Source of the DNA: a virus
Lineage: Duplodnaviria; Caudoviricetes
Length of the DNA stretch: 64,000 nucleotides
Strand: one strand, 5' to 3'
IMG/VR virus record: IMGVR_UViG_3300033463_000010
Span: 64,001 to 128,000 of that record
In this document: positions 4,862-53,039 of the stretch, in pieces
Layout of the letters: each line of letters starts with the position of its first letter
Numbering within the stretch: position 1 is the stretch's first letter
Notes under the pieces: generated by a model
Seen by the model: only the letters and a program-made list of their open reading frames with translations
The model's database searches: none
What the model was told of the DNA's origin: nothing
Made by a program: the position numbers and the translations under genes

Positions 4862-5677
4862 ATGTCTAAAATGAAAATCAAGGTCCACGAAAGAAATTCC
4901 GATAATGACCCGCAGCGTTTCTACGATAAATTGAACCCTGCTGAAAAGCGTCGTTTTGACGGGCTTGCCGACACGGTTGAAGCCCTGGTTGGTGTGTTTG
5001 ACGAAAACGGAAAATTGTCTAAACCGCAGCAAGACCAACTCAAGGAAGCCAGGGACACGATTTACGTGTTTGGCTATGCAGCCAGGGGCTATGTAAGTCT
5101 TGCCGACGAAGTTCTTGCCAACTATGGCGTGGAACCTTTGCTTGACCCGAACGAACCTGTCTTTGGCGAATCCAAAAAGAACGAAGACACCGACGACGCA
5201 GCCGAAGCACTCGCAAAGGAACTAGGGGTTTCTGTTGACAAGGTTTCGGATAGCTCCCAGGACTATGACTATTATGAACTCGATTACACGTATGACGTTG
5301 AATTGACGGACGGCACGACTGCTACTTACCTTGTGTATGATAATCAGCAGTCTGCTATTGACGCTGCTGCGGACGATTTGGGTGAACGTTTCCACGACGA
5401 CAGTAGCATACTTGGGGCAGCTATTGAATACTTCGGCTTCGGGACGCTTTCCGATTATTTGAACGGATATGACGACGAAATGGCTGACCTTGAAAGTCTT
5501 TGTGACGACGTGAGTTCCGAAGAATTTGCACGTATGTTGCAGCAGCGGGGCGGTTTGGATTACCGTGGGTTTGCTGAATACAACATAGGTGAACTTGGGG
5601 CTGCTTGGCACCTTTCCAATTATGACGGCAAAGAAGTTGAACTTGAAAACGGTATGCTCGCATATCGTGTAGATTAA
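4862..5677 (+). CDS. Putative internal head protein with acidic YDGKE-type C-terminal module
   Basis: GAGG RBS; leader MSKMKIKVHE; ESKKNE linker; C-terminus LSNYDGKEVELENGMLAYRVD is paralogous to 53049..53957. Confidence 0.65.
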   Translation: MSKMKIKVHERNSDNDPQRFYDKLNPAEKRRFDGLADTVEALVGVFDENGKLSKPQQDQLKEARDTIYVFGYAARGYVSLADEVLANYGVEPLLDPNEPVFGESKKNEDTDDAAEALAKELGVSVDKVSDSSQDYDYYELDYTYDVELTDGTTATYLVYDNQQSAIDAAADDLGERFHDDSSILGAAIEYFGFGTLSDYLNGYDDEMADLESLCDDVSSEEFARMLQQRGGLDYRGFAEYNIGELGAAWHLSNYDGKEVELENGMLAYRVD

Positions 5678-5689
5678 GGGAGTAAGTAT

Positions 5690-7195
5690 ATGTCTTTGAA
5701 AATCAAAACACATAAGTTTGAAAGCCGTGTAGCTCCCGCTGCACAGCGTCGTCCGTTTGGTCGTATGGCTGAATCCAAAAAGTCCGAAGCTACAAGTTTC
5801 GGTGCGGGAATGTCTAAACGCACGGACCTGTCCAAAATGCGTAATTTGGGTGAAGTCATAGACGTTCTTGAAGAACACAAAAAACTTATGGAAAATAAGG
5901 CAAAGGATTTGTCGCAAAGCAAGGAAGACTTGCAGGCTGCGATTAAGTCCCTTAACGAATTTTCCAAACACGTCCTGTTCTTGAAGCAGCAGTCCGTAAA
6001 GGGTATCAAGGACGCACTCACGTTCAACAAGTCCCCCGAAGTCAAGGCTGCTGCCGATATTGAAAAGCACTTGAAGAATGCTCTTAAAATCCTTTACTCC
6101 GATTATGAGAACATTCCCGACGTTACTCAACTGCTGACAGTTGTTGACAGTCGGTATGCTACCCGTGGTGACAAGGTTGTGACCGCCTGGGTTGACAATG
6201 CGACCCGTGCTATTGAAGTGGACGCAAAGACGATTAAGGACAGCATCGCTGCGGGCGATATGTCCGAAGACGACGTTGTGAAACTTGTGACGGTTACTTA
6301 TGCTACCCACGGTGTCAAGAACAAGGACACCGTTGAAAAGGTAACGCCTGTCCTTGAACGTATGAACGCCTTGCTTGCTTCGGCTCCGAAGATTGAAGAA
6401 GCGGTCATTGACCCGAAGGAATTTAAGGAACTCCGTGACCTTGTGGAACAGATTGTTAAGGAAGCGTCCGAACCGACGCTTACTGTCAAGACTGCTATCA
6501 CTACGCTTTCAAAGGGCGAACTCGCAACCGTCCCGTCCGAAGCGTTTGTGTCCGAGGGTCTGCTTGACAAACTCAAAGACCTTGTGGCTTCTCTCAAGGA
6601 CAAGATTTCGTCCCTGTGGAACTCGTTTACTTCCCTGTTCTTCAACCTGGAAGACGAAGCCCTTGAATCGGCTGAAACGTTTGCCGAAGTTGAAGAAGGC
6701 TTTGCCATTATGGGCATTGTCGTTGAATCCTACGTTGCAAAGAGTGTTCCGCTCGGCAAGCAGTTTGAAGTCCTTACGAAGTCCGTGCTTCACTGCTGCG
6801 ATAAACTTGTCAAGGACGCTTCCCTTGCGGGCGAATTTGACGACGAAGTGATTTACGCAGAAGAAGCCGTCAATAATGCCGTTGAGTCGTTCCAGGCTCT
6901 CGGTGAAGCCTGCAAGACTTTGAAGAACGCATTGTCGTATCACAAAAACGAAGACAATATGAACGTTATCGGTATTCTTGCGGACGCTATCACGCAGATT
7001 GTGAACGACGACAATGGCAGTGCCGATACGGAAGGTGGCGACGACTCCGAAGACGACGAAAATTCTGTAATCCGTGACGTTGAAAAGGAATATAGCCCCG
7101 CAGGTGGCGAGGGCGGTGAAGAAGGTCCCGAAGCGAACGGTGGCGAGAACGAAGCCCCGAACCCCGCTGAAATGGGCGAACCCGAAACGTTCTAG
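5690..7195 (+). CDS. Coiled-coil putative head/prohead-core protein
   Basis: GGGAG RBS; leader MSLKIKTHKFE; ESKKSE; helical A/E/K/L composition; acidic G/E tail. Confidence 0.55.
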   Translation: MSLKIKTHKFESRVAPAAQRRPFGRMAESKKSEATSFGAGMSKRTDLSKMRNLGEVIDVLEEHKKLMENKAKDLSQSKEDLQAAIKSLNEFSKHVLFLKQQSVKGIKDALTFNKSPEVKAAADIEKHLKNALKILYSDYENIPDVTQLLTVVDSRYATRGDKVVTAWVDNATRAIEVDAKTIKDSIAAGDMSEDDVVKLVTVTYATHGVKNKDTVEKVTPVLERMNALLASAPKIEEAVIDPKEFKELRDLVEQIVKEASEPTLTVKTAITTLSKGELATVPSEAFVSEGLLDKLKDLVASLKDKISSLWNSFTSLFFNLEDEALESAETFAEVEEGFAIMGIVVESYVAKSVPLGKQFEVLTKSVLHCCDKLVKDASLAGEFDDEVIYAEEAVNNAVESFQALGEACKTLKNALSYHKNEDNMNVIGILADAITQIVNDDNGSADTEGGDDSEDDENSVIRDVEKEYSPAGGEGGEEGPEANGGENEAPNPAEMGEPETF

Positions 7196-7221
7196 TCAAC
7201 GCCTGGTCCGCTGAAAAGTAT

Positions 7222-7256
7222 AGTTGCCGAGGAATACTCGGCAACTTTCATTTTTG
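7222..7256 (+). terminator. Intrinsic terminator
   Basis: agttgccgag-gaata-ctcggcaact followed by a T-rich tail. Confidence 0.65.
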
Positions 7257-7312
7257 ACGCTGCGTGACTATATTTCATATAGGACAACCACGGCATACAA
7301 AAAGGAAACTGT

Positions 7313-7477
7313 ATGACGCTAGACGAAAAAGTAAAAGAACTGTATGACACGCTGAAGCCGATATGCAAGGAAAAGAAATTGAACCTTGCGTGGGAAGTCC
7401 ATAAGGCGTTGAAGAAATTCCGCAGCGAACACCCCGACCTTGACGAACAGTGGTCCATTGAAGCCTTGAAGTGCTGA
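7313..7477 (+). CDS. Small hypothetical protein (54 aa, MTLDEKVKELYDTLK...)
   Basis: AAGGA RBS; ORF read manually; CTATATTT motif upstream. Confidence 0.6.
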   Translation: MTLDEKVKELYDTLKPICKEKKLNLAWEVHKALKKFRSEHPDLDEQWSIEALKC

Positions 7478-7498
7478 CCGTTTTTGACAGGCACTTTG

Positions 7499-7557
7499 TA
7501 GGTATTCTGTTATATTCATTAGGTAATTTGTTAGATTATTAGGTAATTTGTTATATT
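7499..7557 (+). repeat. Three tandem copies of the promoter-proximal motif TAGGTAWTYTGTTAKATT
   Basis: Copies at 7499, 7520 and 7540 (20-21 bp period). Confidence 0.8.
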
Positions 7558-7669
7558 TATTTTGTATAAAATAAATCTTTCCCCATTAACTGAAATTCTG
7601 CGGTAATGCTCCGCAGAATTTTTATTATTTTTAGAATGTTGCAACAATAAAATTAGGAGTATTCCTCAA

Positions 7670-8833
7670 ATGAATTTTACCGAAAATGCAAAGACTAAAT
7701 TTTGGGCTGACCTTTCCGCAGGTGTAAAGTCCACGTTTGGACATTCTCTCGGTGAAGCGTTCCACATTGACCAATACAAAAGTGGTCGCTTCTCGTTTAC
7801 CGAATCCGTGACGGGCGGTCCTGGTGCTGTCACACGGCTTATGGACTCTTTAAAGGCTTCCTCGCCTGTCATTGAGTCGGTTCGTATGACACCGATTTCC
7901 AACGGCTACAACGCTACATACAACGTGTCGGTTGAATTTAACCCCGTCAAGGCTGAATCCGTTTACAGCGACGGCAAGGACAACGTTAAGACCTTTGAAA
8001 AGGACGGCAAGACCTACGTCGTCGGTAGCGACGGAAACGCTATTCCTGTTGACGACCCCGACAAGTTTATGGATAATGTAAACAAGACCACGGGTTCTAG
8101 TTACAAGAAAAAGTCCGAAGACGCAGACCAGGTGGATATGGACGGGTTCCCGATTGAACTTGACTCCGTTATCGCTCTCGCAAACGAAGCCCTTGACGGC
8201 ACGGGCGTTACTATCGCTAACGAAGGCGGTAAGCTGCTTGTCCGTGGTGCGTCCGAACTTGTGAAGCCGACCCAGGAATTTGTCCCCGAACCGTATTACG
8301 GTGCCGACTCTATTGACGGTGGCTACGACGAAGAAACGGGCGACCTGGCTCTTACCATTCCCGAATATCCGACGGAATACGAAATTGAACAGCTCCGTTC
8401 GTTCCTTATTTCTGCGGTCAACTGCATTATGGACCACGCCCTGTGCAAGACTGCCGATTGCTCCGACGACGATTGGTGCAACGCTATGGCAGAAGCAGAA
8501 CCGTGCGAAAGCTACGTTCACAAGTATGGCTACCTGGGCGAAGCATTTGTCGGTAATGACAAGAAACAGGTTGCTATCCTGGTGAAGTCGCTATTGCAGG
8601 AAAACCGCCTGGAAGACGCAAAGAAAGTCGCCACGAAGCATATGGGTGCTGAAATGGCAGAAGGCTTCACCCGCAAGTATGCACCCGAAAAGGTGGAAGA
8701 AAAACATCAAGCGGTCATTACAGACGAAATGGCTCTGCTTGACAGAATGCACGAATCCGCTATGAACCGTGCCCCCGAAAAGGTGGTGGAAATGGATTCC
8801 CTCGTCGCCAAAAATTTAACACAGGAGAAGTAA
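7670..8833 (+). CDS. Putative head/scaffold-associated virion protein
   Basis: AGGAG RBS; acidic; KKKSE linker; directly upstream of the sheath gene. Confidence 0.5.
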   Translation: MNFTENAKTKFWADLSAGVKSTFGHSLGEAFHIDQYKSGRFSFTESVTGGPGAVTRLMDSLKASSPVIESVRMTPISNGYNATYNVSVEFNPVKAESVYSDGKDNVKTFEKDGKTYVVGSDGNAIPVDDPDKFMDNVNKTTGSSYKKKSEDADQVDMDGFPIELDSVIALANEALDGTGVTIANEGGKLLVRGASELVKPTQEFVPEPYYGADSIDGGYDEETGDLALTIPEYPTEYEIEQLRSFLISAVNCIMDHALCKTADCSDDDWCNAMAEAEPCESYVHKYGYLGEAFVGNDKKQVAILVKSLLQENRLEDAKKVATKHMGAEMAEGFTRKYAPEKVEEKHQAVITDEMALLDRMHESAMNRAPEKVVEMDSLVAKNLTQEK

Positions 8834-8836
8834 ACT

Positions 8837-11125
8837 ATGCCGATAAATGATAGTGCAGGTGTAGGTGTTTACCTTATTGACAAGTCGCAGCGTTCTTCTG
8901 TCGCTATCGGTTTCCGTTCTGCGGGTGCCATTGAAGCAGACAGGGGACTTTGTAACACGCCAACCTTGATTTCTAGCGAAGACGACTACGTTAAGGCGTT
9001 TGGCACTCCGTCTATGGAGCGTCACGGTCTTGCTGCTATGGAAGCATATTTGCTTGCACAGCGTAAGGTCCCGCAGGTTCTCGTCCGTGCAAAGGACCCG
9101 ACAATGCTCCCGTCGGACACTCCGTTCGGGGCTATGAAGTTTACCGTGGAAGACGGCAAGTTGGTCGTGAACACGATGCTTCCCGCTATTGCGATTGCTT
9201 CCCCTGGTGAAGACAATGAAGCTATGCTCTATTTCAAGGGCGAAGGCGACTACTGTTCCAAAGAACGCAAGAACGTTGTCGTGCGTTTGAGCCAACCTGT
9301 CACGCAGTCTGCTTACGCAAAGGAAGGTCGTTCCGTCCGTGTGCAGTTGTTTGACTTCAACGGTTCCAACCATATTGACGAAGACGTTCCCGCAGAACTC
9401 GCATTCAACCCCGACGTTGCTAACTTGATTTCCGCTACGGGCGATTTCAAGTTGGACGGCTTCCTGGTTGGTTCCGCTGCGGGCAGCGACGCAGGTGCTT
9501 CGGGCGAACACCCCGTAAAGATTACCGCTTTCGTGAACGGTCGTGTTTATAATCTGCCCGACTTTGACTACTCGTCTTTGTTTGACGGCTCCGATTGGGG
9601 TATGTTTGATAAGTTCGCCCAGGCTGCGAAGGGTGCTACCTACGCAGACGGCAAGCCTGTCATTAAGCCGTCCAAAGAAGAAGCCCAGGGTTCCGACGAC
9701 TATTGGGACCTTTCCCTGCTTTACAGCCCTGGTGAAAACGGTGACGGTTCGGGTTCCGACGCTAACGAAAAGTATGGCGTGTATTACCTGTATTCGGGTA
9801 AGGACGGTGGACCGCAGGAACTCAACTGCTTTGGTCTTTCCATTTCGCTTACGGCTACCGTGGAACTCCCGATTGCCGAAGACCCGACTTCTACCCGTAA
9901 ACTCGCCCCTGGCTTCTACGGCTATCCGTGCGGTAGCGTGACGGTTGCGAAGAAGGGTGACGGTTACGTTGCGAAGTTCAACATTAGCACGAACCTTTAC
10001 CTCAAGAACCGCAGCACCTATATGTTTATGGGTGAACAGAATGAGTATTGGGCTTCCTACTACAAGACCTACTGCGTGAATGACTTCGTGGTGTCTATGT
10101 CTTACGACGACTTTGATTCCAACTACGTGTCTATGCAGATGGACGCTGTAATGGGCGGTTCCAAATACCTTGTTCCGAAGTCTAGCGAAATCTTTGGTGA
10201 CTATACCATTGATTACGAACACGACGACATTACGAACAAGCTGCACTACTTTGAGGGTATGATTAAGGCTAACACCATTCCTATGCAGAACAAGTCCTAC
10301 GCTTACTCGCAGGCACTTCAAGTTTTGCTTGGGGACAACCTTACCCGTTGGCGTTGCTTGGCTACTCCGAACTTGGGTGACGTTATGAACCCTGCGGATT
10401 ACATTTCCGCTATCACGGCTTCTAATGAAGCAACTCTCGGCTTGTCTAACATTGGTCGTGCTGCTGCTACGGACGTGTTCGGAAATCTTACGGGTCGCCA
10501 CGGCAACCGCTTTATTGCCGACTACTGTCAGTATGCTTACCGCACTCTTGCGGGAAAGCGGACCGCAGTCACTATGGCTTGCCTTGTCGCAGACTTGCTC
10601 AATAGCCATTACAACGAAGGTATTGAAGCACGTCCCCCGTTTGGCTACAACTATGGTCAAATTGCCTGCTTGTCCTTGTCGCAGCAGTTTAGCGGTCCCG
10701 AACGCAATATGCTTGCAAGACAGCTCAAGATTAACCCTGTTGTTGAAGACGGTGGTTACTACATTTGGGAAGAACGCACGTCGCAGCTTACCGACACGTC
10801 CTTGTCCGACGTTCATTGTATCATATCGTTTCTGTGGATGAAGTTCGCTATCTATGACGCTATGAAGTCTTTCGTGGCTGAATACAACGACCAATCTACT
10901 GTGAACCGTGGTCTTGCAGTTCTCGGTCAGTTGAACCAAAACTTCATTGACAAGAACTACATTGAAGAAGGCATTGTAAGTGCCGACAAGAACGTTATCG
11001 GTGACGAAGTGCTTCGCTTTGACTACGCAATCCGCTTCAAGGGCGTTGCCCGTTTCGTGGACGTTTATATCACCGCATACAGTCAAACGCAGACTTTGGC
11101 TGTGTCGCTCGCACAGGAGGCTTAA
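8837..11125 (+). CDS. Contractile tail sheath protein (T4 gp18-like)
   Basis: N-terminal GVGVYLID..PTLISSEDDYVKAFGTP; C-terminal ERNML..KINPVV..GYYIWEERT..LSDVH pattern typical of sheaths; followed by a tube-sized gene. Confidence 0.88.
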   Translation: MPINDSAGVGVYLIDKSQRSSVAIGFRSAGAIEADRGLCNTPTLISSEDDYVKAFGTPSMERHGLAAMEAYLLAQRKVPQVLVRAKDPTMLPSDTPFGAMKFTVEDGKLVVNTMLPAIAIASPGEDNEAMLYFKGEGDYCSKERKNVVVRLSQPVTQSAYAKEGRSVRVQLFDFNGSNHIDEDVPAELAFNPDVANLISATGDFKLDGFLVGSAAGSDAGASGEHPVKITAFVNGRVYNLPDFDYSSLFDGSDWGMFDKFAQAAKGATYADGKPVIKPSKEEAQGSDDYWDLSLLYSPGENGDGSGSDANEKYGVYYLYSGKDGGPQELNCFGLSISLTATVELPIAEDPTSTRKLAPGFYGYPCGSVTVAKKGDGYVAKFNISTNLYLKNRSTYMFMGEQNEYWASYYKTYCVNDFVVSMSYDDFDSNYVSMQMDAVMGGSKYLVPKSSEIFGDYTIDYEHDDITNKLHYFEGMIKANTIPMQNKSYAYSQALQVLLGDNLTRWRCLATPNLGDVMNPADYISAITASNEATLGLSNIGRAAATDVFGNLTGRHGNRFIADYCQYAYRTLAGKRTAVTMACLVADLLNSHYNEGIEARPPFGYNYGQIACLSLSQQFSGPERNMLARQLKINPVVEDGGYYIWEERTSQLTDTSLSDVHCIISFLWMKFAIYDAMKSFVAEYNDQSTVNRGLAVLGQLNQNFIDKNYIEEGIVSADKNVIGDEVLRFDYAIRFKGVARFVDVYITAYSQTQTLAVSLAQEA

Positions 11126-11128
11126 TCT

Positions 11129-11731
11129 ATGCCACAGAATATCAAGATTAACGAACTGCTTGGCGATGACTTCAAAGAGTATAACTACGCAGTTACGTCT
11201 AATTGGCGTATTGACTTTTCGGGCAGTAATGAGTTCAAGAAACTGCTTGAAGGTGCCCCTGGTGACGACGGGCACCCTGCGGTGTTGAAGCAACTGTCTT
11301 TTGCGTGTCATTCGGATTTTCAGTTTGAAGCCGACGTTGAATACGCAGAAGCCGAAATCAAGGGCATTCACATTTCGCAGGCTGCTTGGCAGGACCGCTT
11401 CATTGACTCGCTGCCGATTGACGTGTATGAAAATATGGACCATAGGGTGTTCAAGGCTCTCGTCCAGGCTGCTAACAAGACTGCGGGCTACTTTAAGCAC
11501 CGTGATATTGCTGCGAAGACGGAATACACCTTTGACGGTATCACGCTTACCGCTTTGGGCAACACCGTTGACGGTTCCGAACCGTCTAACGCAATCGTGT
11601 ATCACTTGAAGGGTGTGCAGATTAAAAAGGTGCAGTCCCCGAACTACACCTCCGACGCTGCCGAAATCGGCTCCGTGCAACTTGAACTCAAGGCACACGG
11701 TTGGACGATTGGCGACGACGGCACGACCTAA
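11129..11731 (+). CDS. Tail tube protein
   Basis: 200 aa, beta-rich, immediately after the sheath, followed by a strong terminator. Confidence 0.7.
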   Translation: MPQNIKINELLGDDFKEYNYAVTSNWRIDFSGSNEFKKLLEGAPGDDGHPAVLKQLSFACHSDFQFEADVEYAEAEIKGIHISQAAWQDRFIDSLPIDVYENMDHRVFKALVQAANKTAGYFKHRDIAAKTEYTFDGITLTALGNTVDGSEPSNAIVYHLKGVQIKKVQSPNYTSDAAEIGSVQLELKAHGWTIGDDGTT

Positions 11732-11751
11732 TCGCCCCGTGTAATTGTTGC

Positions 11752-11788
11752 AAAATGCCCCGCTCATTTCGTATGGGTGGGGCATTTT
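11752..11788 (+). terminator. Intrinsic terminator of the sheath-tube operon
   Basis: aaaatgcccc...ggggcatttt stem with a ttcg-containing loop. Confidence 0.75.
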
Positions 11789-11815
11789 CTATGCAGAATA
11801 ATGTATATTTAGGCT

Positions 11816-13111
11816 ATGAAGACGTTGAAACTAGCCATAACGAATAACCCCGACCTGTCGGATGTTATAAGAGTGTATAGCAGTATGTTCCGTATGGCTT
11901 ACAATCGTCTTCAAGAGGGTTGTTCCGAGAATACTACGTGGCACAAAATTAAAGAAATTTTCGGTGTAAACTGTTGGCTTGCCTCGTCTGCTGCAAAGGA
12001 AGCACACGGGGTAGTTACGCTTAACAAGGGTAAGAAAGTCTTGTTTGGGGGTAAGTGGAACTTAAAGCAATACCTTAAAGGCTTGATTACCAAAGAGCAG
12101 TTTAAGCATAAGCGGTTGGTGCCCTTATGCAGTATAGGGGAAAAACAATATGCAGGGAACCGCCTGTTTGACTTTGACTTTAATAATCGGACTGTTGTGT
12201 TCAAGCCTGGTAACGGTGTCCGTAAGGAAATACAGTTCTGCCCCGTTAAGAAGAAACTAGCACAAGAGTTAGCCAAAGTTCAAGAGTTAGCCGAACAGAA
12301 GAAAATGCCCGTGACCGTGAAGTTCACGGACAAGCATTTATACCTTACTTACGACGAATCCTTGATTTATAACGAAGCATACAAGAACTTAAAGCACAAC
12401 CGTGTTTTGGGAATAGATATGAACCCCAATTATGTCGGGGTTTCCGTTATTGAGTTTGATAAGAACGACGAATTTAAAATACTGCACAAGGTAGTGTTTG
12501 ACCTAACCGCACTTACGAAGCCTAGCGGTAAGGCAAGCACGGATAAGAAATCCAAATACTTTACGAACAAGCTGAAGCACGAAACTATCGCTATTGCTCA
12601 CAAGATTAACAAGTTGGTGGACTATTGGAAGTGTAGTAAACTAGCCATTGAAGACCTGTCTATAAAACCGAAAGACCAAAATAAGGGCAGGACGTTTAAT
12701 CGCTTGTGTAATAACAGGTGGGAACGTCAACTGTTCGTGAACAAGCTGAAAATGTTGGCTAATATCCACAGGTATGAGCTAGTTGAAGTCAATCCTGCCT
12801 ATTCTTCAATCGTGGGCAACTTTGCATACGGTAGTCCCGATACTCCCGATATGGTTGCGTCCTCTATTGAAATAGCACGTAGGGCTTACAAGAAATTTGA
12901 GAAGGGATGGTTCTATCCCGGGTTTAACGTTGAACGAACAGACGAGCAATGGAAGCAAACGCTGTCGGGAGTGAAAACCTGGAAAGAACTGTTCCGAAAA
13001 GTCAAAGAAACGGGACTCAAATACCGTTTCCTGCTATCCGACTATGTTGGAAATGTAGTCTTGAGTATCTTCTATAGTAAACAGAAGTGGAAATTACTAC
13101 TTTTTAATTAA
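11816..13111 (+). CDS. tnpB: TnpB/Cas12f-like RuvC nuclease lacking a zinc finger (copy A)
   Basis: RVLGIDMNP (D), LAIEDL (E), VNPAYSSIVG, PDMVASS (D); AT-richer than neighbours; inserted in the tail operon. Confidence 0.85.
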   Translation: MKTLKLAITNNPDLSDVIRVYSSMFRMAYNRLQEGCSENTTWHKIKEIFGVNCWLASSAAKEAHGVVTLNKGKKVLFGGKWNLKQYLKGLITKEQFKHKRLVPLCSIGEKQYAGNRLFDFDFNNRTVVFKPGNGVRKEIQFCPVKKKLAQELAKVQELAEQKKMPVTVKFTDKHLYLTYDESLIYNEAYKNLKHNRVLGIDMNPNYVGVSVIEFDKNDEFKILHKVVFDLTALTKPSGKASTDKKSKYFTNKLKHETIAIAHKINKLVDYWKCSKLAIEDLSIKPKDQNKGRTFNRLCNNRWERQLFVNKLKMLANIHRYELVEVNPAYSSIVGNFAYGSPDTPDMVASSIEIARRAYKKFEKGWFYPGFNVERTDEQWKQTLSGVKTWKELFRKVKETGLKYRFLLSDYVGNVVLSIFYSKQKWKLLLFN

Positions 13112-13123
13112 AGGAGATATACT

Positions 13124-13546: not shown

Positions 13547-13561
13547 CAACCGAGGTAACAA

Positions 13562-14308: not shown

Positions 14309-14315
14309 CCTTGAT

Positions 14316-14420
14316 ATGAGCAAGTCCGTAGCCGAAGTGGAAGACTACTTGCGGGCTAGGGAAGAAATGCTTGAAAAGGAAAAGAAGCAGGCGAAAGAAA
14401 AGAAACCTATGAGGCGGTAA
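14316..14420 (+). CDS. Short charged ORF (gp51/GT-like; possibly reached by +1 frameshift)
   Basis: Fills the gap before the tape measure gene; +1 frame relative to the upstream ORF; no clear SD. Confidence 0.5.
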   Translation: MSKSVAEVEDYLRAREEMLEKEKKQAKEKKPMRR

Positions 14421-14425
14421 CTGTT

Positions 14426-16411: not shown

Positions 16412-16423
16412 TGAGGTTGTGTA

Positions 16424-18977: not shown

Positions 18978-19718
18978 ATGTCTTTGAAGATACGACTTCA
19001 CGAATCAAGCGTGACCCGCATTATGTCACACTTGAAGAACTACGACTGCGGGACCATTACTGCGTTCCGTGGAACCTGTGCAAACGCTACGGACAACACC
19101 CTGGATTCCGTCAAGGAATACGAGGGTAAGTCTATCCCGCTTTCTGTAAAGAAGCAGTGGAACCGTGACTTGAAAGCAGCCCTGCTCAAGTTGGGCTACG
19201 GTGTGACCGCTATCAAGGGTCGCTACCGTGAAGACGGTTGGGACACCGCTTCGGACGAAGAATCGTTCTTTGTCGTGAACCTTACCGACGACCCCGACTT
19301 TATCAAGAATATGGCTCGCCTGGGCGAAGCCTACAACCAGGACAGTATCTTGATTAAGGAAAAGGGCAGTGACAACGCCTACCTGTTGGGAACCAACACT
19401 AGCGAGGGTGACTTTGACCCCGCCCTGGGCGAAACGCAGGACATTGGTAAGCTGCACGTAAATATCCCGTTGGACTACCTGGGTGCTTCGTCCGTTATCG
19501 GTAACAAGGCATTCATTTTCAAGGGTGACGACGAAAGCAAGAACGAAGCCAACGGCAATCCGTTTTCGCTTGACACGTTCTTTGCTTACGGCAATTACAG
19601 CAAGAGCGGTATTGCCCAACGTGCGAAGCCCGTGTTGGAAGCCCTGGGTCTGCCGACAAGTCGTCCGATAGCTGCATACAAGCAGGCGTTGGAAAATGCG
19701 GTTTCTTTTAATAAGTAA
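18978..19718 (+). CDS. Conserved myovirus protein with MSLKIRLHE leader (putative internal head protein)
   Basis: AGGAG RBS; ESSVTRI..DCGTITAFR..GYGVT..G.Y.E..EESFFV..YNQDSIL motif recalled from T4-like phage hypothetical proteins. Confidence 0.65.
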   Translation: MSLKIRLHESSVTRIMSHLKNYDCGTITAFRGTCANATDNTLDSVKEYEGKSIPLSVKKQWNRDLKAALLKLGYGVTAIKGRYREDGWDTASDEESFFVVNLTDDPDFIKNMARLGEAYNQDSILIKEKGSDNAYLLGTNTSEGDFDPALGETQDIGKLHVNIPLDYLGASSVIGNKAFIFKGDDESKNEANGNPFSLDTFFAYGNYSKSGIAQRAKPVLEALGLPTSRPIAAYKQALENAVSFNK

Positions 19719-37627: not shown

Positions 37628-38014
37628 ATGCCCTACAAATTCAAAATCAAGACCCACGAAGCCCGATACAACAGCGATGCCGACCTGTTTGACCAACTCT
37701 ACGCCCAAAGCCAGGAACTCCGCAAATGGCGTAAAGGCGAACTCCCGTTCAAGAAAGCCACGGGTGCCATTATCAAGGCTCTCTCACGTCGTATCGGTCC
37801 CCGAACCGCACACACCGCTTTCAAGAGCCGTGGCGTGAAAGACAGCTACGACTACCTTATGGCTAACTGTATGGCTGAATACGCTGCCGTCGCCTGCCTG
37901 GACAAAGGCGAAGACTTTATCAAGTCCTTCCTGGACGACAAGTCCCAAACACTCCCGAACGACGTGTGGGACAAGGCTGCAAAGCAGTGGATTGACGACG
38001 CAAAGGACCTGTAA
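37628..38014 (+). CDS. Putative internal head protein with MPYKFKIKTHE leader
   Basis: GAGGA RBS; AATAACCTATATTT at 37571; leader motif. Confidence 0.6.
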   Translation: MPYKFKIKTHEARYNSDADLFDQLYAQSQELRKWRKGELPFKKATGAIIKALSRRIGPRTAHTAFKSRGVKDSYDYLMANCMAEYAAVACLDKGEDFIKSFLDDKSQTLPNDVWDKAAKQWIDDAKDL

Positions 38015-44605: not shown

Positions 44606-44995
44606 TTACCTGCGGTATTGTGCAAGGTAGGTGGAGTTGACGGCTTGTTCCAGGGTTTGCCAACGGGCGTATTTGGCTTCGGGAATGGTGACGGCAAATG
44701 CGTTGGCAAGGACTGTGGCGAGTTCGCCAGGTGTAATGGGAAATTCGGACAGGCGTGAGTTGGGACCTATGCCCTCGGTTGAGCGTAGGAAGCGGTCGGC
44801 AAGGTAGTCTGTGACGTAGTGCGTGATTTCGCAGCCGTCGGCTACGATTAGCTTGTCCTGTATATGGTCCTTGCAGCAGTGGAACGATGCAGGGGACCAG
44901 GTAGCCTGGAAGCCCGTATGCTTGCAAACGACGAGTGGCGTGTAGCCGTCGTGGTTGTAGTCAAGTTTGGCGTATATGCAGTCAAGGCAGTTCAT
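44606..44995 (-). CDS. Cys-rich N-terminus plus degenerate acyl-carrier-protein-like domain
   Basis: IGPNSRLSEF..GELATVLANAFAVTIPEAKYARWQTLEQAVN resembles the ACP pattern; DSL serine absent. Confidence 0.45.
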   Translation of the reverse strand: MNCLDCIYAKLDYNHDGYTPLVVCKHTGFQATWSPASFHCCKDHIQDKLIVADGCEITHYVTDYLADRFLRSTEGIGPNSRLSEFPITPGELATVLANAFAVTIPEAKYARWQTLEQAVNSTYLAQYRR

Positions 44996-47900
44996 AGCTA
45001 GGGAAGTTTTTCGTGTTCAACGAAGTGCAGGATAATGTCGCAGGCTTTTTCCAGGTCGTCGGACTGTGCGAACTTGGCACTGTAATCATACACGAAGTCG
45101 CCCGTAGGGTGTTCCAGGAAGACTGTGGTGCCGTCCGTAGTGACGAGTATGTATTGCCCGCTGAACAGGTCCACGGAACCCTGCGGGAGTGGCTTGGCGT
45201 TTTCGGGGAGTGACACAATGCCGTCGCCCTGTTCAACGAACTGCCGTGTGCTGATGCGGTGCGTGTTTCGGAGCAGCAGCGGGCGGGTGTCGCCTGCAAG
45301 CCGTTCCTGGAGCCTGTCAAAGATACTGTCTATCGTAAAAGCCATAGGTCATTTGAGCCATTCGGGTTTGGGGAAGTGCGACGAATAGGTGATTTCGTCG
45401 GTTTCTGTGGATTCAACTTCGTGTGCGTCGTCCCAATAGGTCCGCAGGTCGGTTCCCGTGGGCAGGTAGCAGACGATAATCGCAGCGGTGAAATTGTGGT
45501 CTTCGTCCTGGGTGTAGCCCGTAATCCAATAGGGGCATTGGATAGGCTTGAGCGATTGGAGCGGGCGGGGGTCGTCCACGGATTTGGTCTTGAAGCGATA
45601 GCGTGTGTATGACATAGGGTTTTCCTTATTGGATTAGGGTGGTTTCGGCTTTGGAAACGTGCCCGTTAATGTCAACCGTCCTTTCGTCGTCGGTAAGGTT
45701 GGCAAGCCGTTCGTTAAGTGCGTCAATGGCTTCCTGGGGGACGGGTCTGTTCGTATTGTGCGACGGCAGGTTTGAATACGTCCAAAATACCAGGTGCTTC
45801 GTGTAGGGGTTGAGTTGCAGGCATTCGCCCGACAAGGTGTTCTGCGTGATGATACCGCACAGTCGGCTAGACAGCATAGCGTGGACGGGTCTGCGGTTGT
45901 CGGGTGAGTAGAAGTAGAACGGCTTGTCAAATTCGGGAACCTGTTCCTTGAACGACTTCCAGGCGTAGGGCTGCTTTTCTGTTGACATAATACCTCGGTA
46001 TGGTTGAAAGTAAATATAACAAATTATCTAACGGTCGTCCTTGACGCAGCAGGGGGCGTTGTCAAGCAGCGGGAAGCCCCCGCAGTAGAACGGGCGGTGT
46101 TTTTCTGCCTGTTCTTCCACCCACCGTTCAAAGAACAGGGTGTTGTTCGGGAAGCGGTAGCGGAACGATTTGTGCAGGTCGGAAAAACCTACGTTGCACA
46201 ATATGTCGTAGGGGTCCTGGTCGGTCTTGCTCAAAAGGACATACTTGTTCCGTGGGTAGTTGAAGAATGACACTTTTTCAAGTCCCCATTTTTCTTCGGG
46301 CGTGTGCCAGGGATATACCCAGGTTTCGGTCCCGTCTTCGGACTTGAAGAACTTTATGCCTGGGTAGTTCTTCTCCAGGATAAACTTGAACGCTTCTTCG
46401 GTCATTCGTCGGCTCCCTGGAAGCAGGACGGTATCGGGTCGTCAATGTAGTTGGCTGAAAAGTCGGGCTGCGGTGGTCCGAACTGTTCCACGATACGGGA
46501 CACTTCGGCTTTGGCGATTTCGTCGGACATTTCCGTGCTTTCGTCGTAGCGGGCTACGATTAACCCGTTGTAGCGGATAAAGGCGAGCATACCGTAGTCT
46601 TCAACCAACGTCCCACGGGGACGGCAGAATTTCGCTTGATGCAGGGTCGTATAGGATTCAATGAACGTCCCCAGGGGGCACGTTTCTTTGGTAAGGTTGA
46701 ATTTGGCTAGAAGCAGGTCCAGGACCTTGAGGGCTTTTTCGTTCGGGGTCATACGTTTTCCTTTTGTTCGGGTTCGTCATCATACGGGGGGTTCGGGTGT
46801 TCTTCGCACCATTTGGCGAAGTCGCCCATTTGCTGCACGATAACCTTTTCGTCTTCTTCACGTTCCCGTATGAACTTTTGAAGACCACGTTGGTTATACC
46901 TGCACCCTAGTTCGCCTTTGGCGTTTTCGTAGATATAGTCTTCGTTATCCCCGAACAGCTTGCAGGTCGGGTAGTTTTCCTGGTAATCGTAATCTTCGTA
47001 GGGGCAGTTCTTACAACGCATATCACGGCTTCGTTACAATGTAGTTTATGCCGTTGTCGCAACGGCAGGTGACGTAATCCCCTGTTTTGAGTTCCATATT
47101 GGCTGCGGGGTCGTATTTGGAGCGTCGGGCGATTAGCTCTATGGAGCCTGCTTCTACCAGGAACAGGTCCCCGTCCGAATAGCGGATTAGTGCTTTGAAT
47201 GAGGTTGAAGTCATAGGCGAATATAACAGTTTACCTTGTTAGGGGCTAAAAATTTTTTTTGGGCTACCTGTTACGGTAGGTTCTTTTCAATGTAGTAGTT
47301 CCCGTTATGCTGCACGAACCCGTCGGGGCAGGTCAGTTTCCAGGATTTGTCGCTTCCGAACAAGTCGGTGAAACGGTCCAACTTGCAGCCGTGGTGCTTG
47401 CCGTCCTCGGTCGTATAGGTCGTCGGCTGTTCGGGACCGTCAGCCTGGGTTTGTTTGCGGAGCATAATCATAGGGACTACGCAGAGGCTCCAAAACAGGA
47501 CCACGGCAACTGTAATCGCTGTGGTGATTATAATTCGTTTCCAATCTAGTTTCATAGATGTGTTCCTCGGTTGTGGGTTAATAGCCTTTGCCACCGTGCT
47601 TGTCGGCTTCGGGGTTGGAAGTCACCCACCCCGTATGGTTGCAGTGCAGAAGTTCACGGCAGTCAAAGCAGATTTTGTGGTTCGGGTCCACGGGCGTGGC
47701 GTATGCCCCAGGCTTCCCGCAGACTTCGCAGATTGTCGTATTTTCTTCGGGTTCGGGTAGTTCCGCTATCGCAAGGTTTATACTTCCTTGCGTAAGGTCC
47801 ACGGTTTTTGAACCATACACGTCGTTGCGGGAAATCGTGATTTTGTCCGTTTCGCTAGTCTGCTCATACAGCTTTGCGACGTAATAGTAGCGTAAGGGGC

Positions 47901-50817
47901 TGTCGCACATTTGGACGAAGCCCTTGATTTCCCAATTATGGTCGGGGGTCATAGTGAACGTCGGGGGGCTAGACATACAGCTTTGTTTCAGCATTATACC
48001 TCTTGCCACCATATCACGGATTTTGTTGCCTAGATACGTGACGGCAAAATCCGCACGTTCCATAAGTTCTTGCAGGTCGTAGGCTTCGGGGCACTTGTCG
48101 TAATCTATTGTCATATAAAAACCGACGGGGTTAAAAGTGAATATAACAGGTTATCTAGTCTAGCAAAATCGGTGCAAAATTTTTTATGTCACAGTCGGAC
48201 AATCCATTATTCCGCATCGCTTTTAAAAGAATGCTTTTACCCTTTGGAAATTCCTGTAGTTCGTGTTCTACATATAGACGCAGTGGCAGGATTTCAAATC
48301 CATATAAATGGGTTAGAACCCAAAAGCCTTTTTTAAGTAATGCTTGGCACAAAGGGAACATCGGTTGGGCAATTCCATCCATTTGTTCGCAGATTGCGTT
48401 ACTGTGCATATATTCCCTAGTTTCTATTTGGACTTCGTTTGGAACTTGCGGGTGAAATTTGATTAGTATTTCCATATGGGGTTTCCTTTTAAATTTAAAA
48501 AAGGTTGAAAGTGAATATAACAGGTTATCTAGTATTCCGTAGAAACGTAGAAGTTTTGACCGCAGCGGGAGCAGTGGACCTCGTATTCTGCGGGTGTGTC
48601 GTCGGTAGCGGGGCGTGTGCAGTCGCTTTCCCAAACGGAGCAGGTTTTACCGCAGCACGGACACCACGCTTCCATATCTTCCTCGTTAAGGTGTGATACC
48701 ATACTCATAGAAAGTAGCCCCCTAGTGCAGCATTTTGTCCAATTTGAGCAGGAACGCTATGCCTTGCGTTAGTTCCATTTCACAGAAGAAATTCAGCAGA
48801 TATTCCTTGTTGTATTCAAGGAACCCTGCTATGGGCTTTGCGTGGGCGAACACTTTGGGACAGAACGACGGGAACGACATTTGTTCGTAGTCTAGCTTCT
48901 TTGACCGTTCGCTGTCTGCAACTATCTTTTCTGCGGGAAGGTATCGGTTGAGCCAGGTAAAGGCGTAGCGGATAGCCTGTTGGACGTGTTCTTCCTTGAC
49001 GTATTTCCAGGTTATGTATTGTCCTAGACCTAGCGTAAGGGTCACGTCGTCGGCTATGGTGCATTCTATGTGCTGATGGTCGGGGCTGTATTCTTCCTTG
49101 ACTATAAGACGGGCTACCGTCCCGCCATCTTCGGAACGTTCGTCCGCTTTCAGCACGACGCAGTTGGGGTATTCAGCCTGGATTTTGTGGAAAAATGTGA
49201 ATAAGTCAATGGCATCGCCCATAGGTTATTCCTCGGTTTTAATGTCTTTGTCGGGATAGCACCAAAGGTGCGTTGTAAGTAGTTGCCTGTAATGGGACAC
49301 GGGCAGTTCCCCGTCGCTTGAATAGATAACACGGTCGTGGAACTTGTGTCGGCTTGCGTGTTTCAGCGGTAGGTCCTTTCGTTTGAGCAGGATAGTTGAA
49401 TTGTCCTGCGGGACTTCCTCTTCAAAGCTACGCCAGGTTATAGTGCAGTGTTCGGTCTGTCGCATACGGTGTTCCTATGTCAGCAGGACGTGGAATGAAC
49501 GGATTACGAAATACACCAGGTAGATTATCGCAGCCAACAGAATGACTACGGCAAGACAGCAGCCACAGCCCTTGTCGTCCACGCACTCCGTATCGGAGCA
49601 GCAGAAGATAAAGACAAGGATAGCCACAATCGCTGCCGTGGCTAGACCGTATTCAAGGGGCGTAATCATTTGCGGGTCCTACGTGGAGCCTTACCAGGGT
49701 TAAGACTGTGTTCAAGCGGGACCAGGGCGAAGCCCTGGTGGTCTGTCAAGATATGCCCCTTTGAGCGGGCTATGTCTATTGCACTGATTTGTGTCATAGG
49801 TGCGTTACCATTTCATAATGTTGCGAATGAACTCACGCTGTTCGGGGACGTATTCGTTCAAGATTCTTTCCCTGCGAATGCCTTCTATCACCCCCAGGGT
49901 GAACTGTGCCAGGACGATTAGGAACCCTGCGATTAGGTGGACGTAAAGCGGGCACAGGAGGGACCAATGCCACGGCAGGGCGGTTACGGACCATACCTGG
50001 AACTTGCCCACTTCGGCAAAGTGCAGGATTACCGCCAGGATTGTGTAAATGACCGTGAGCGGGAAAAGTTTGGTTGAGAGTTTGGACAGAATGTTTAGGA
50101 ACAGTGTCATTTTGGTTTTCCTTTTGGTTATGGGTTAAACAGGGGCGTTTCCAAACGGTCCCCCATAGATTAAGGTTTTAGGTGTCTTCGGTTTGGTTTC
50201 AAACAGTATGTCAAACAGGTAGTCCCGCCTTACGCCTGCGTGTTTCTCGCACATTCCGTAATGTTCCACGGAGTAAAGGGCGGGAAGGCTGCAATTACAG
50301 ACAAAGCAGGTGGCACCCCCGAAATCTTTGCGGTGGCGGTCTTTGTATTCTTCGTAGGTTGGTAATGTCGGTATAATCTTGCGGGCATCGTCCTGGACCC
50401 TTCTCACGTTGTCGTCGGGCAGTTCGTCCAGGTATTGTTGAATTTTGGCGAACGGCATACCCTCGGTAATGAGCCGTAAATCGGCAACCGTTCTAGGCAG
50501 CAGGCAGTTCATTTTTATAAACAGGGTCATATCTTCCACGGACTTGAAGTCTTCACGGTCTTCCACCAACTTGCAGTGGTCGCCCAGGGTCCTGTGGACC
50601 ATATAGCATTTGCCTGTATTTAAGCCGATATACCATTGACGCTTTAAGAAATTCAACAGTATTTCGTCGGTATCTTCGTAGGCGTAGGTGTGGTCTATTT
50701 CCACGCAGATACCGCAGCAGAACAACAGGTTAATGATGTTGAATACTGCGTCCCTGGTCTTTTCGTCCCAATGAATGATAGTCATTTTCCCTCGGTGGTT
50801 GTGGTTTTACTATACCG

Positions 50818-50870
50818 AATATAACTAATTATCCAGGCGGTGTCAATAGGTAATCTAACAAAATACCTAG
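50818..50870 (-). promoter_or_regulatory. Early promoter with an extra upstream motif copy
   Basis: TTGACA at 50846-50841 and TATATT at 50823-50818; second TAGGTATTTTGTTAG upstream. Confidence 0.75.
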
Positions 50871-51869
50871 AATTTTAATTGTATCGGGAACATAGGGTTT
50901 TCGGGGACGGGGCTATCGCCCAGGACGATATAGGCAGCGACAAAGAATGCCGTGAGCAGCATTCCGATTGTAGTTAGTCGGGCTTTCAATGACGTAATCG
51001 GGTCAAAGAAAATCGCTAGGCAGGTCAAGCCGATTGCACCGCCCAATAGATACATAATGTCGTAAGTAGTCATTGGGCTAGTCCTTTGTTATACGGAGTG
51101 TAAACGCTTCGTCCCAACGGGAAGCACCCACGGCACGGACGTAGCAGCCGTCCCGTTCCTGGGCGGGCTTTTTGAAGCGGGCGTGTTCACAGATATACTG
51201 CGTCTTCGTTTCACGGATTACGGGGTATCGGGCTATCCCGCCTGCGACAAACGGATTGTTCTGTTCAAGGATTTTCATAGTCTTTTATCCAGGTCTGTTT
51301 CGGCAGGGACTTCAAGAATGTAGTAGTTGGTCTGCTTGAAGTCACCGCACGGGGGTTGCTGTTGGTCTATGGATATTTCTATCCTGTCGTTATAGGACCC
51401 GCTGACCGTTACGGTCATAACCAGGTCTTTTCGGGCTTCGGGGTTGGTTATATGGACTATCATTGTAAAGTTCCTTTTACGTTAGCATCGGCAGAATGTT
51501 CGGGTTTTCCCTAACGATTTCGTCGTGGATTTCCTGGAACGTTTCCATTAGGGTTTCTTTGGCGGGTAGTCGGGAATAGACTAAATCGTGGAAATTGATT
51601 AGGCGGTCCCTGGTTATGAACCTGTGGTCCATAGACTGCGTGTCTGCGTGGACGTGGACGTTCGGGTAATCAAACCACCAGGTAAACATCACACTGCCGA
51701 TTTCAACGAAATTCCAGGTCCCACGCCTGCAATCGGAGCAGGCATAGTAGAACCCGTTGCGTCGTTGCTTCCCGCAAATCGGGCAGCACGGGAACGGCTT
51801 CAGCTTTCGGGTTTTCGGAATGGACCTGTGACGCTTTTTCATTGGGTTGTCCTTTTCGGTGAATGAAAC

Positions 51870-52532
51870 TTATATCGGAACAGTCTTGCAGAGTTCCTTG
51901 TTTTCGTTGGTCCATACGAACCAGGCGTGACACATAGTTGTCGCCCAACGGCTCCCGTGTTCGTCGGTAGGTTGCCCGTTGTTCCAGGTAGCCATACGCT
52001 TTGCGAACGGGAAGCAGAACTTGGGCGGGTGGTCAATAAGGAACTGCTGTCGCTTGTCGCCTTCCCAAAATTGGATTTTGAGAAAGAACGCCAGGTAGCC
52101 TTTCGGTGCCAGGTGCTTCAAGCATTTTTCTGTAAATTCCTGGGCGAGCGAATACGGGGGGTTTGAAACGATTAGGTCGTATTTCGTCTTCGCCATAATC
52201 GCCAACGGTTCATAGAGCAAGAAATCCTGGACCCTGGTGTTCGGGTAGCCACGGTCCACAAGGTCAATAAACACGTTCCTAGCATCCAGGGAATTTTTGA
52301 GCGAATGCGTGAAATAGTCTAGCGTGGCTGTCGCTATGTTCCCGTTGCCTACGCAGGGTTCCAGGAATGACCTGGGGGTGAAATCTTGAAAATCGGGGTC
52401 ATACGTGCAAAGTGCATTAAACAGAGCTGCTACGGCTTTCGGGTCAGTAGCGTAGAAATCATTTTCGGTTCGGTAGCCTGCCGACGGGTTGCCACCTGCA
52501 AGTTGGGCACCCGATAGGGTTGGAAATGCCAT
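51870..52532 (-). CDS. Phage N6-adenine DNA methyltransferase
   Basis: DFYATD, motif I LEPCVGNGNI, motif IV SNPPY, AWFVW. Confidence 0.88.
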   Translation of the reverse strand: MAFPTLSGAQLAGGNPSAGYRTENDFYATDPKAVAALFNALCTYDPDFQDFTPRSFLEPCVGNGNIATATLDYFTHSLKNSLDARNVFIDLVDRGYPNTRVQDFLLYEPLAIMAKTKYDLIVSNPPYSLAQEFTEKCLKHLAPKGYLAFFLKIQFWEGDKRQQFLIDHPPKFCFPFAKRMATWNNGQPTDEHGSRWATTMCHAWFVWTNENKELCKTVPI

Positions 52533-52564
52533 AAGGGTTCCTTGATTAGATTTTGTCCTGTATG

Positions 52565-52617
52565 AATATAACTAATTACCTGGTCCTTGTCAATACCAAA
52601 TATAACAAAATACCTAG
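52565..52617 (-). promoter_or_regulatory. Early promoter of the MTase with a tandem motif copy
   Basis: TTGACA at 52593-52588 and TATATT at 52570-52565; second copy at 52617-52599. Confidence 0.75.
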
Positions 52618-52661
52618 ATAGGGTGCTGAAATAAGCCCCGTGGTCGGGGCTTTGTTATACG

Positions 52662-53039
52662 TTACTTCAAGACTTCGGATTCAAGCCACGGTTTCAGTTC
52701 TACGTCCCACCTGTCCCCGAAAGTCGTATATTCAATATCTACTTCTTTCGGGTTCATTTTTAGAATGTGCGACGGAACGTTCTGTCCCCAAAAAGTCAGC
52801 GGGTATTCCGTGTTGTTACAGATACATTTAGTAGAAACAATCGGCTTGCCCGCTTCTTTCTTTCCACCCAAATGAACGTCCCAATGTTCGGTCTTCGTCC
52901 CGTCGGTAACGTCTTCTATAAGGTGACAGCCACCCCCGTGCGGGAGTTGCAGGCAACTGCGAATAGCGGACATAACCTTTCGGATAAATTCCTGCTTCGT
53001 TAGGTCGTTGGATTCGTGTATGCGGATTTTTAGGGACAT
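52662..53039 (-). CDS. Putative internal head protein with MSLKIRIHE leader
   Basis: Leader almost identical to that of 18978; terminator at 52633-52652. Confidence 0.6.
   Translation of the reverse strand: MSLKIRIHESNDLTKQEFIRKVMSAIRSCLQLPHGGGCHLIEDVTDGTKTEHWDVHLGGKKEAGKPIVSTKCICNNTEYPLTFWGQNVPSHILKMNPKEVDIEYTTFGDRWDVELKPWLESEVLK

Follow-up and report, generated by a model that had tools for sequence, protein, structure and literature searches.

In bacteriophage T4, Mullaney and Black reportedly found a short capsid-targeting sequence (CTS) on the internal proteins IPI, IPII, IPIII and Alt in 1996. Such sequences are propeptides of 10–20 residues that carry proteins into the core of the prohead, are cut off by the protease gp21 after a Glu and suffice for loading foreign proteins (PMC5694885, PMC3012670, PMC9024508). 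Propeptides are likewise removed from the structural proteins gp23 and gp24 (PMC5694885). As read from the T4 record, the propeptides span 6–19 residues and end in hydrophobic-x-E, with MKTYQEFIAE in IPII and IPIII, MELITELFDE in Alt, MAKINELLRE in gp24 and MLKEQLIAE in gp22. Here we describe a shared N-terminal leader, hereafter the tag, in a 64,000-nucleotide (nt) stretch of Caudoviricetes DNA, hereafter the window, which comprises bases 64001–128000 of the 213,231-bp IMG/VR virus record IMGVR_UViG_3300033463_000010 (estimated to be 97% complete). An initial annotation had noticed the leader, M-S-x-K-I-(K/R)-x-H-E, on dispersed genes whose remaining sequences seemed unrelated, and had proposed a sorting signal analogous to that of T4. 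Our analysis suggests that the tag is probably a capsid-targeting propeptide, which would make it a functional counterpart of the T4 CTS with a different consensus.

Whole-genome positions of the 213-kb phage are given below with the prefix G000; all other positions are window coordinates, which start at genome base 64001. Two relatives served for comparison, G001 (3300028914_000054) and G002 (3300031998_000006), both of them complete genomes of ~215 kb. Among GenBank phages, no match was returned for 8 kb of the window (megablast) or for the tail sheath (tblastn); by DNA and by tail-sheath protein alike, the 213-kb phage has no cultured close relative. The promoter-like motifs described below, together with Prevotella Lak phages as the source of the nearest homologues of the cargoes, suggest that the host of this clade of 210–225-kb phages is probably a member of the Bacteroidota.

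Results

A shared N-terminal tag on otherwise unrelated proteins

All six N-termini quoted in the initial annotation, five strict ones and a looser one at position 282, proved correct on re-reading of the sequence, and a plausible ribosome-binding site lies ahead of each (Table 1; genes are named here by the window position of their start). Scanning the window for additional members yielded no further convincing one. When N-termini were scanned across the whole genome and the relatives, as that annotation had suggested, more tagged genes turned up, including ten further clear members in the 213-kb genome. The number of tagged genes per genome thus came to ~16 in G000, at least 11 in G001 and at least 7 in G002.

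The tag is 8–12 residues long, typically 9–11, and follows the consensus M-x(1-5)-(K/T)-I-(K/R)-(V/L/I/T/M)-H-E-(S/A/R/K/T). Among 32 tags from the three genomes, P3 was V, L, I, M or T and P1 was Glu in every one, P2 was almost always His, and the residue after the tag Glu (P1′) was mostly Ser or Ala. Behind the tag, the description of the proteins as unrelated held up: once the first 14 residues were removed, the best match in an all-against-all BLASTP comparison had an E value of 0.07.

Enrichment was assessed in a crude set of 331 genes covering the whole genome with the pattern [KRTN][ILVM][KRMNV][ILVMT][HQ]E. The pattern occurred 13 times within the first 8 residues, where 0.07 occurrences were expected (Poisson P about 7e-26), versus once in 59,757 internal positions; in the window alone, the expected number was 0.024 and 4 N-terminal occurrences were counted (P about 1e-8). 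Both P values are on the generous side, the pattern itself having been drawn from the data, but the effect is overwhelming even so and rules out a chance origin of the tag. An unbiased all-against-all comparison of N-termini returned the tag family as the largest cluster of the genome. MITKIKLHNF (G000:200444) and two N-termini sharing NFKCF (G000:21635, 148253) were set aside as chance members of this cluster, and MIIHEA at G000:30760 was rejected because its orthologues sit inside longer open reading frames (ORFs). An exact-pattern scan of IMG/VR for M-K-I-K-V-H-E returned known relatives and, apart from these, chance N-termini followed by hydrophobic residues, implying that this precise spelling is confined to the present clade.

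A doubtful longer candidate, MRIRPAGSFFTLHES, was noted at 56083 on the minus strand. The 186-amino acid (aa) product encoded there falls outside the tag family; its orthologues retain (L/I)-x-E-(S/A) at the same site (MKIRPAGSFFSIDEA, MLIRPACSGMTLDES), and its start may be a longer cleavable propeptide.

The tag on a predicted S-adenosylmethionine lyase

The product of gene 18978 matched the S-adenosylmethionine (SAM) lyase family PF23780 with 46.8 bits, against a cut-off of 28 bits. Its AlphaFold model had a predicted local distance difference test score (pLDDT) of 78.8; residues 1–9, that is the tag, scored below 50, and the first helix started at residue 11. Foldseek matched this model to the T3 SAM lyase (8BB1_E / 7OCK) with probability 1.00, an E value of 3e-5 and a target template modelling (TM) score of 0.60–0.65. 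By family and fold, the protein is predicted to be a T3-type SAM lyase, an anti-restriction enzyme, and the model places the tag outside the folded cargo domain.

The SAM-lyase-like family comprises 67 protein-database clusters and 328 IMG/VR loci. In alignments, its conserved core starts at E9-S10, both residues being nearly invariant in 47 homologues. Leaders of this family are variable in sequence and range from 10 to 126 residues (mostly 13–19), and in 77/77 parsable loci they end in L (45), I (25), V (5) or M (2) followed by x-E directly ahead of the SSLSR core. Homologues at 39–45% identity from the wider clade of the window retain KI(K/R)x(H/N)E. In T4-like phages, the same family bears T4-CTS-like leaders of the MK..I.EW..F.NE type, and in Microcystis phage Mel-JY01 a member starts MQFKQYILGE/SSLSR (slashes denote predicted cuts). 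Large contigs with a member of the family had PF03420 (Peptidase_S77) above the cut-off in 5/5 cases (E 1e-25 to 2e-32). One of these five, the T4-like genome G008, has the leader MKLLLENWRKxxxE in common to 5–7 proteins, the SAM-lyase-like cargo among them, and thereby serves as a putative positive control for reading a shared N-terminal tag as a CTS. The constant ending in all 77 loci and the T4-like leaders elsewhere indicate that the leader follows the phage lineage and not the cargo, with a boundary exactly at the predicted cut.

In Campylobacter phage CP220 (gp187–gp189), the family is represented by gp189, which shares the start MKF.DY.K with its neighbour gp188. The members in CP220 and Mel-JY01, both cultured and T4-like, are annotated only as 'hypothetical protein'. 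A functional precedent comes from a T4-like cyanophage, whose virion proteome includes a SAM hydrolase (PMC10665884); this hydrolase was absent among the 27 phage records matching the enzyme of the window.

A predicted gp21-type protease and a gp23-type capsid protein

The genome contains, just upstream of the window, a 347-aa ORF matching phrog_207, 'head maturation protease', at 3.6e-22. In an hmmscan of the ORF, it matched PF03420 with an E value of 1.4e-4 over profile positions 21–197 of 198. BLASTP against T4 gp21 gave 31% identity over 149 residues (E 6e-7) with T4 His85 and Ser140 aligned, and the corresponding His and Ser were invariant in 33 protease homologues, several of which have precomputed PF03420 matches. 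The phage is accordingly predicted to encode a prohead serine protease of the gp21 type (MEROPS S77). The PF03420 match is weak on hmmscan and was missed by a six-frame PF03420 search of the phage's own genome, and a phmmer search of the protease against PDB sequences returned nothing; the link to gp21 comes from PHROGs, Pfam and pairwise BLASTP. Past the catalytic domain, the protease has an ESK(K/Q)(S/N)E linker, whose E186-S187 is invariant in the 33 homologues and aligns with ITESQTAE in the C-terminal part of T4 gp21; this linker may be an autoprocessing site.

A gp23-type capsid gene (PF07068 above the cut-off, E 2.7e-10) lies directly upstream of the window. Near residue 64, its product reads FVNE/NSSASSLG, which is conserved in the relatives and resembles the cut in T4 gp23 (LTE/AEIGG after residue 65); a maturation site removing a propeptide is likely here. 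Four tagged genes are located between the protease and capsid genes, gene 282 follows immediately downstream of the latter, and genes 282, 1316, 4862 and 5690 are all found in the interval from the capsid gene to the tail sheath gene. Within this stretch, an IS200/IS605-type TnpB transposase gene (phrog_506, 3.6e-84) interrupts the cargo genes on the opposite strand, and a second, copy-like TnpB gene is found elsewhere in the genome (Table 1).

Genes beside IMG/VR homologues of the protease were compared across lineages. Next to homologues at 54–66% identity, the tag took the form (I/M/T)(K/R)V(H/K/R/D)E, with starts such as MIIKVHE, MNIKVHES, MQIKVKES and MAMRIRVRES. At 48–50% identity, neighbouring starts read MxKIxLVxxxxEAS, and below 46% there were other shared leaders ending in L-x-E, for instance MxxAxDV(I/L)(K/R)LxE and MKTKAQEMLDFLxE. 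These comparisons indicate that the tag changes with the phage lineage rather than with the cargo.

The proposal of a T4-analogous sorting signal with a different consensus is therefore supported on several sides: by the predicted gp21-type protease, the gp23-type capsid protein and the hydrophobic-x-Glu ending, as well as by clustering in the head module, by the position of the tag outside the SAM-lyase fold and by the T4-like leaders on the same cargo family. Taken together, the alignments and models describe a tag that is position-specific, selected at the protein level, modular, outside the cargo fold and ending in the motif expected of the protease. We consider it likely that this leader is an N-terminal capsid-targeting propeptide.

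Polyproteins combine one tag with many internal linkers

Several cargoes are built from modules. Gene 4862 encodes the leader, a module A, the linker ESKKNE and a module B; residues 16–106 of its product recur, at 73% identity, as an internal module within a G002 polyprotein of 669 aa, and no Pfam or PHROG family matched the product. Gene 5690 encodes the leader, a 16-residue spacer, the linker ESKKSE and a conserved acidic helical module. Among 28 representative proteins, the latter module was mostly the C-terminal unit of polyproteins of 570–830 aa, and in most of them it started directly after ESKKSE or a close variant. The AlphaFold model of the 5690 product (pLDDT 46.7) shows long helices, with low confidence for residues 1–54, and is as a whole too poor for a fold search. 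Two modules of the 282 product (residues 10–123 and 247–335) recur in polyproteins of the relatives behind ESKKSE-type linkers, and the last module of the 1316 product, itself a polyprotein, likewise recurs in the relatives' polyproteins.

Gene 1316 starts with a second type of tag, MNKTFTCSMQKKKESFAKKSE. A second shared motif, C-S-M-Q-K-K-(K/I)-E-S-(L/F)-x-K-K-S-E, was observed in three proteins of the head module close to their N-termini, and it occurs internally as well (Table 1). In G001, the module that follows this motif in the product of G000:59638 sits right behind a KIRVHE tag, whereby the two tags look interchangeable.

The polyproteins of the relatives (570–830 residues) contain many ESK(K/Q)(S/N)E linkers and a single tag, at the N-terminus only, which implies a role of the tag beyond marking a site for cleavage. 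This bears on the main rival of capsid targeting, namely that the tag is merely a cleavable pro-sequence, providing a good protease site or keeping the protein inactive, while entry into the prohead is set by the cargo body or by co-assembly with the scaffold. The last three residues of the tag do fit the protease motif, the internal ESKKSE linkers are Glu-ending sites that lack the KIKVH part, and T4 gp23 and gp24 lose propeptides as structural proteins (PMC5694885). Yet conservation extends over five or six positions ahead of the Glu, beyond what cleavage alone should require, and is confined to N-termini; polyproteins with many linkers have exactly one N-terminal tag; and the orphan cargoes share nothing else that could target them. 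We thus regard a role in cleavage alone as unlikely.

Position and nature of the tagged genes

Apart from the SAM lyase and a protein with a lectin-like Lcl_C domain, the tagged proteins match no family. Most cargoes are orphans with fast turnover, and the one clear enzyme is of the anti-restriction type. Neither G001 nor G002 contains an orthologue of gene 18978, 37628 or 53039. For the 37628 product, we found no family and no usable relative in the ESM Atlas; the 53039 product likewise had no usable ESM Atlas relative, while its homologues (58–84% identity) start M-(S/A)-L-K-(I/V)-x-x-H-E-S in 5/5 cases. A frequent occurrence of the motif on clearly non-structural proteins, which the initial annotation had named as evidence against its reading, was not observed: none of the cargoes belongs to replication, transcription or metabolic housekeeping.

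A function outside the capsid, for instance as a degron or protease-timer, in localisation to the membrane or a phage nucleus, or in recognition by a chaperone or a modifying enzyme, would suit genes 37628 and 53039, located among small genes distant from the head module, and would be compatible with the mostly unknown functions of the cargoes. It sits poorly with the tagged genes clustering most densely within the head module and with the T4-CTS-like leaders that the same cargo family bears in phages encoding bona fide gp21 proteases; the tag is also too short and too charged to serve in Sec or Tat export. Such a role appears improbable to us, the phage-nucleus version being judged without a search for chimallin or PhuZ genes.

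Selection acts on the peptide

Across the 32 tags, codons vary synonymously: Leu is spelled with six codons, Ile with three, Arg with four and Ser with both TCN and AGY. This argues that selection acts on the peptide. The DNA upstream of the tagged genes and their ribosome-binding sites differ from gene to gene. Two codons do deviate from this freedom in the leaders of G000, G001 and G002, with CAC for the tag His in 30/31 cases (61% in the genome, 79% in the cargo bodies) and AAA for the first tag Lys in 18/22 (34% in the genome), a nucleotide-level bias that the peptide alone cannot fully explain.

The genome also contains a promoter-like element, TTGTTATAT, in 37 copies, often followed ~30 nt on by ACCGAGGAT (25 copies). 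The pair has the look of a common early promoter with its 5′ leader and resembles promoters of the Bacteroidota type. As a source of the tag this element was ruled out, since neither TTGTTATAT nor ACCGAGGAT precedes the tagged genes.

The biased His and Lys codons, and the presence of a shared early 5′ element in this very genome, are what speaks for a nucleotide-level origin of the similarity, be it a common translation-initiation region, a 'downstream box' or a copied recombination cassette, with the peptide as a by-product. Against it stand the freely varying Leu, Ile, Arg and Ser codons, including the TCN and AGY sets, the dissimilar upstream regions and ribosome-binding sites, the absence of ACCGAGGAT ahead of any tagged gene, and retention of the tag at 39–45% cargo identity and across phage lineages, so that we hold this explanation to be very improbable. 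That the tagged genes are diverged paralogues, the tag being all that is still recognisable of their shared ancestor, would fit their tandem clusters at 58.0–59.6 kb and 207–210 kb of the genome but is scarcely credible, given that similarity ends at residue 14, that the proteins span 88–501 aa, that one cargo has the fold of T3 SAM lyase and another a lectin-like Lcl_C domain, and that the SAM-lyase family has quite different leaders elsewhere, implying addition of the tag to a pre-existing domain.

Table 1 Tagged genes, related cargoes and further features of the window and its source genome (positions with the prefix G000 are whole-genome positions)
Feature	Position	Strand	Length	Details
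Tagged gene 282	282..1289	+	335 aa	degenerate leader MSNKHFKIVVKE, nt 282-317; then EAKKNE, nt 315-332
Tagged gene 4862	4862..5677	+	271 aa	leader MSKMKIKVHE, nt 4862-4891; linker ESKKNE, nt 5168-5185
Tagged gene 5690	5690..7195	+	501 aa	leader MSLKIKTHKFE, nt 5690-5722; linker ESKKSE, nt 5771-5788
Tagged gene 18978	18978..19718	+	246 aa	leader MSLKIRLHE, nt 18978-19004
Tagged gene 37628	37628..38014	+	128 aa	leader MPYKFKIKTHE, nt 37628-37660
Tagged gene 53039	52662..53039	-	125 aa	leader MSLKIRIHE, nt 53013-53039
Ten further clear tagged genes	G000:23403, 53972, 58017, 58348, 58620, 59246, 207242, 207691, 208503, 209356			
Cargo polyprotein 1316	1316..2650	+	444 aa	second tag type MNKTFTCSMQKKKESFAKKSE, also on G000:59638, 60700; internal linkers ESKKSE 1613-1630, ESKQNE 1934-1951, ESKKSE 2303-2320
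Second shared motif	1316-2650 (+); G000:59638, 60700, 61132, 93473 (window 29473), 212872			
Promoter-like TTGTTATAT/ACCGAGGAT element (examples)	18473, 21918, 22627, 25662, 29156, 30264, 38143			
Predicted head maturation protease	G000:56961-58004		347 aa	ESK(K/Q)(S/N)E linker, G000:57516-57533
gp23-type capsid gene	G000:62339-63988			
Tail sheath gene	8837-11125			
TnpB transposase	2767-3969	-		IS200/IS605 type
Second TnpB copy-like gene	G000:46851-48089			
Gene outside the tag family	55523-56083	-	186 aa	begins MRIRPAGSFFTLHE, followed by S

Discussion

If the tag is a capsid-targeting propeptide, the tagged proteins would be made late in infection, together with the head proteins, and the short, basic, strand-like K-I-K-V-H would dock them on the assembling prohead core, perhaps on an acidic scaffold or on the protease itself. 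The shell would close around the docked cargo. The gp21-type protease would then cut after the invariant Glu (P3 V/L/I/T/M, P2 His, P1 Glu, P1′ mostly Ser/Ala) and probably also at the ESK(K/Q)(S/N)E linkers, freeing the mature proteins inside the head. Upon infection, the mature cargo would leave the head along with the DNA and enter the next host, where the SAM lyase would destroy S-adenosylmethionine before expression of any phage gene. Cleavage, packaging, the docking partner and ejection are what we infer from the sequences described above.

More tentatively, tag and linkers may form a modular loading system, a picture that we consider possible rather than probable. A single address would serve either for one protein or for a chain of swappable modules, and the protease would clip off the address and separate the modules, so that lineage-specific, pre-made effectors including a SAM lyase ready to act are injected before any gene is expressed. 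The address would co-evolve with the head machinery as a 'postcode' of the lineage, and the SAM-lyase family would have been re-addressed many times.

Several observations weigh against capsid targeting. The protease scores 21.9 bits for S77, under Pfam's own cut-off of 27 bits, and a T4-type portal (Portal_T4, PF07230) was looked for and not detected. Conservation of E9-S10 across the SAM-lyase family could be structural instead of reflecting a cut site, and a close homologue (62% identity) has just MNE ahead of the core. At P3, where the T4 motif has a hydrophobic residue, the ESKKSE linkers show Lys or Gln, which makes it an assumption that one protease cuts both tag and linker sites. The tag, (K/T)-I-(K/R)-x-H-E, is basic and strand-like without similarity to the acidic MKTYQEFIAE, and the mature cargoes are mostly acidic (isoelectric points of 4–6), unlike the basic internal proteins of T4. 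The tagged genes 37628 and 53039 are found in small-gene arrays far from structural operons. To these adds the CAC and AAA bias in the leaders.

Were capsid targeting to hold true, the 'address and clip' principle of T4 would reach a distant clade of uncultured 210–225-kb phages, with an address sequence that is lineage-specific and readable from genomes alone. Injected effectors would become predictable in metagenomic phages through shared N-terminal tags ending in a protease motif, and each genome would offer ~16 candidate first-strike factors in anti-defence or host takeover, almost all of them functionally uncharacterised. The SAM lyase, an early-expressed protein in T3, would be delivered pre-made in many T4-like phages, which would alter the picture of how it competes with restriction-modification, BREX and similar systems. 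Using the tag to load foreign proteins into capsids, as raised in the initial annotation, is a proposal, and its value as a new capsid-loading tool rests entirely on experiments with a cultivable relative.

Compared with the CTS of T4, the likeness lies in a short N-terminal extension (8–12 residues here, 10–19 in T4) on otherwise unrelated, fast-evolving proteins, in an ending of aliphatic hydrophobic residue-x-Glu followed mostly by Ser or Ala, in a gp21-type protease, whose His and Ser are conserved, together with a gp23-type capsid protein, and in the location of tagged genes, some of which adjoin the protease gene while others occupy scattered variable loci. Anti-restriction activity is predicted for a cargo here and known for IPI* in T4, and the orphan nature of the cargoes matches that of T-even internal proteins (PMC3012670). 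Differences concern the almost constant His at P2, the number of tagged genes (~16 per genome here, a handful in T4), the predominance of acidic rather than basic cargoes and the multi-module polyproteins with ESKKSE linkers, of which T4 has none.

In encapsulins, a short terminal peptide directs unrelated enzymes into a shell of the HK97 fold; these cargo-loading peptides are usually C-terminal, remain uncleaved and bind the shell protein directly, and the compartments are cellular, not virions. The jumbo phages phiKZ, 201phi2-1 and SPN3US have a gp21-related protease cutting after Glu (PMC5694885, PMC7411985, PMC10052503). Many of their head-internal proteins are N-terminally processed, and their protease undergoes C-terminal autoprocessing, for which the conserved E186-S187 past the catalytic domain is the possible equivalent here. 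Propeptides in phiKZ and SPN3US are mostly >100 residues long, unshared and cut at (S/A/G)-x-E (PMC5694885), in contrast to the shared tags of 8–12 residues with an aliphatic P3 that we found. In phage P1, an N-terminal signal brings the anti-restriction protein DarB into the head of a myovirus, to be delivered along with the DNA, and the first 30 residues of DarB suffice to load a reporter (PMC9024508). That signal is longer, is known on one protein and needs the stepwise Dar assembly, unlike a tag that is shared by several genes and ends in a protease motif. As for the cargo, the SAM lyase of T3 (gp0.3; PDB 8BB1, 7OCK) shares the Pfam family PF23780 and the fold of the 18978 product, whose family has in addition a ~60-residue C-terminal helical extension. 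The T3 enzyme is the first early protein and leaderless, whereas 18978 and hundreds of IMG/VR loci have a cleavable-looking leader, implying that here the enzyme would be delivered as a pre-made protein.

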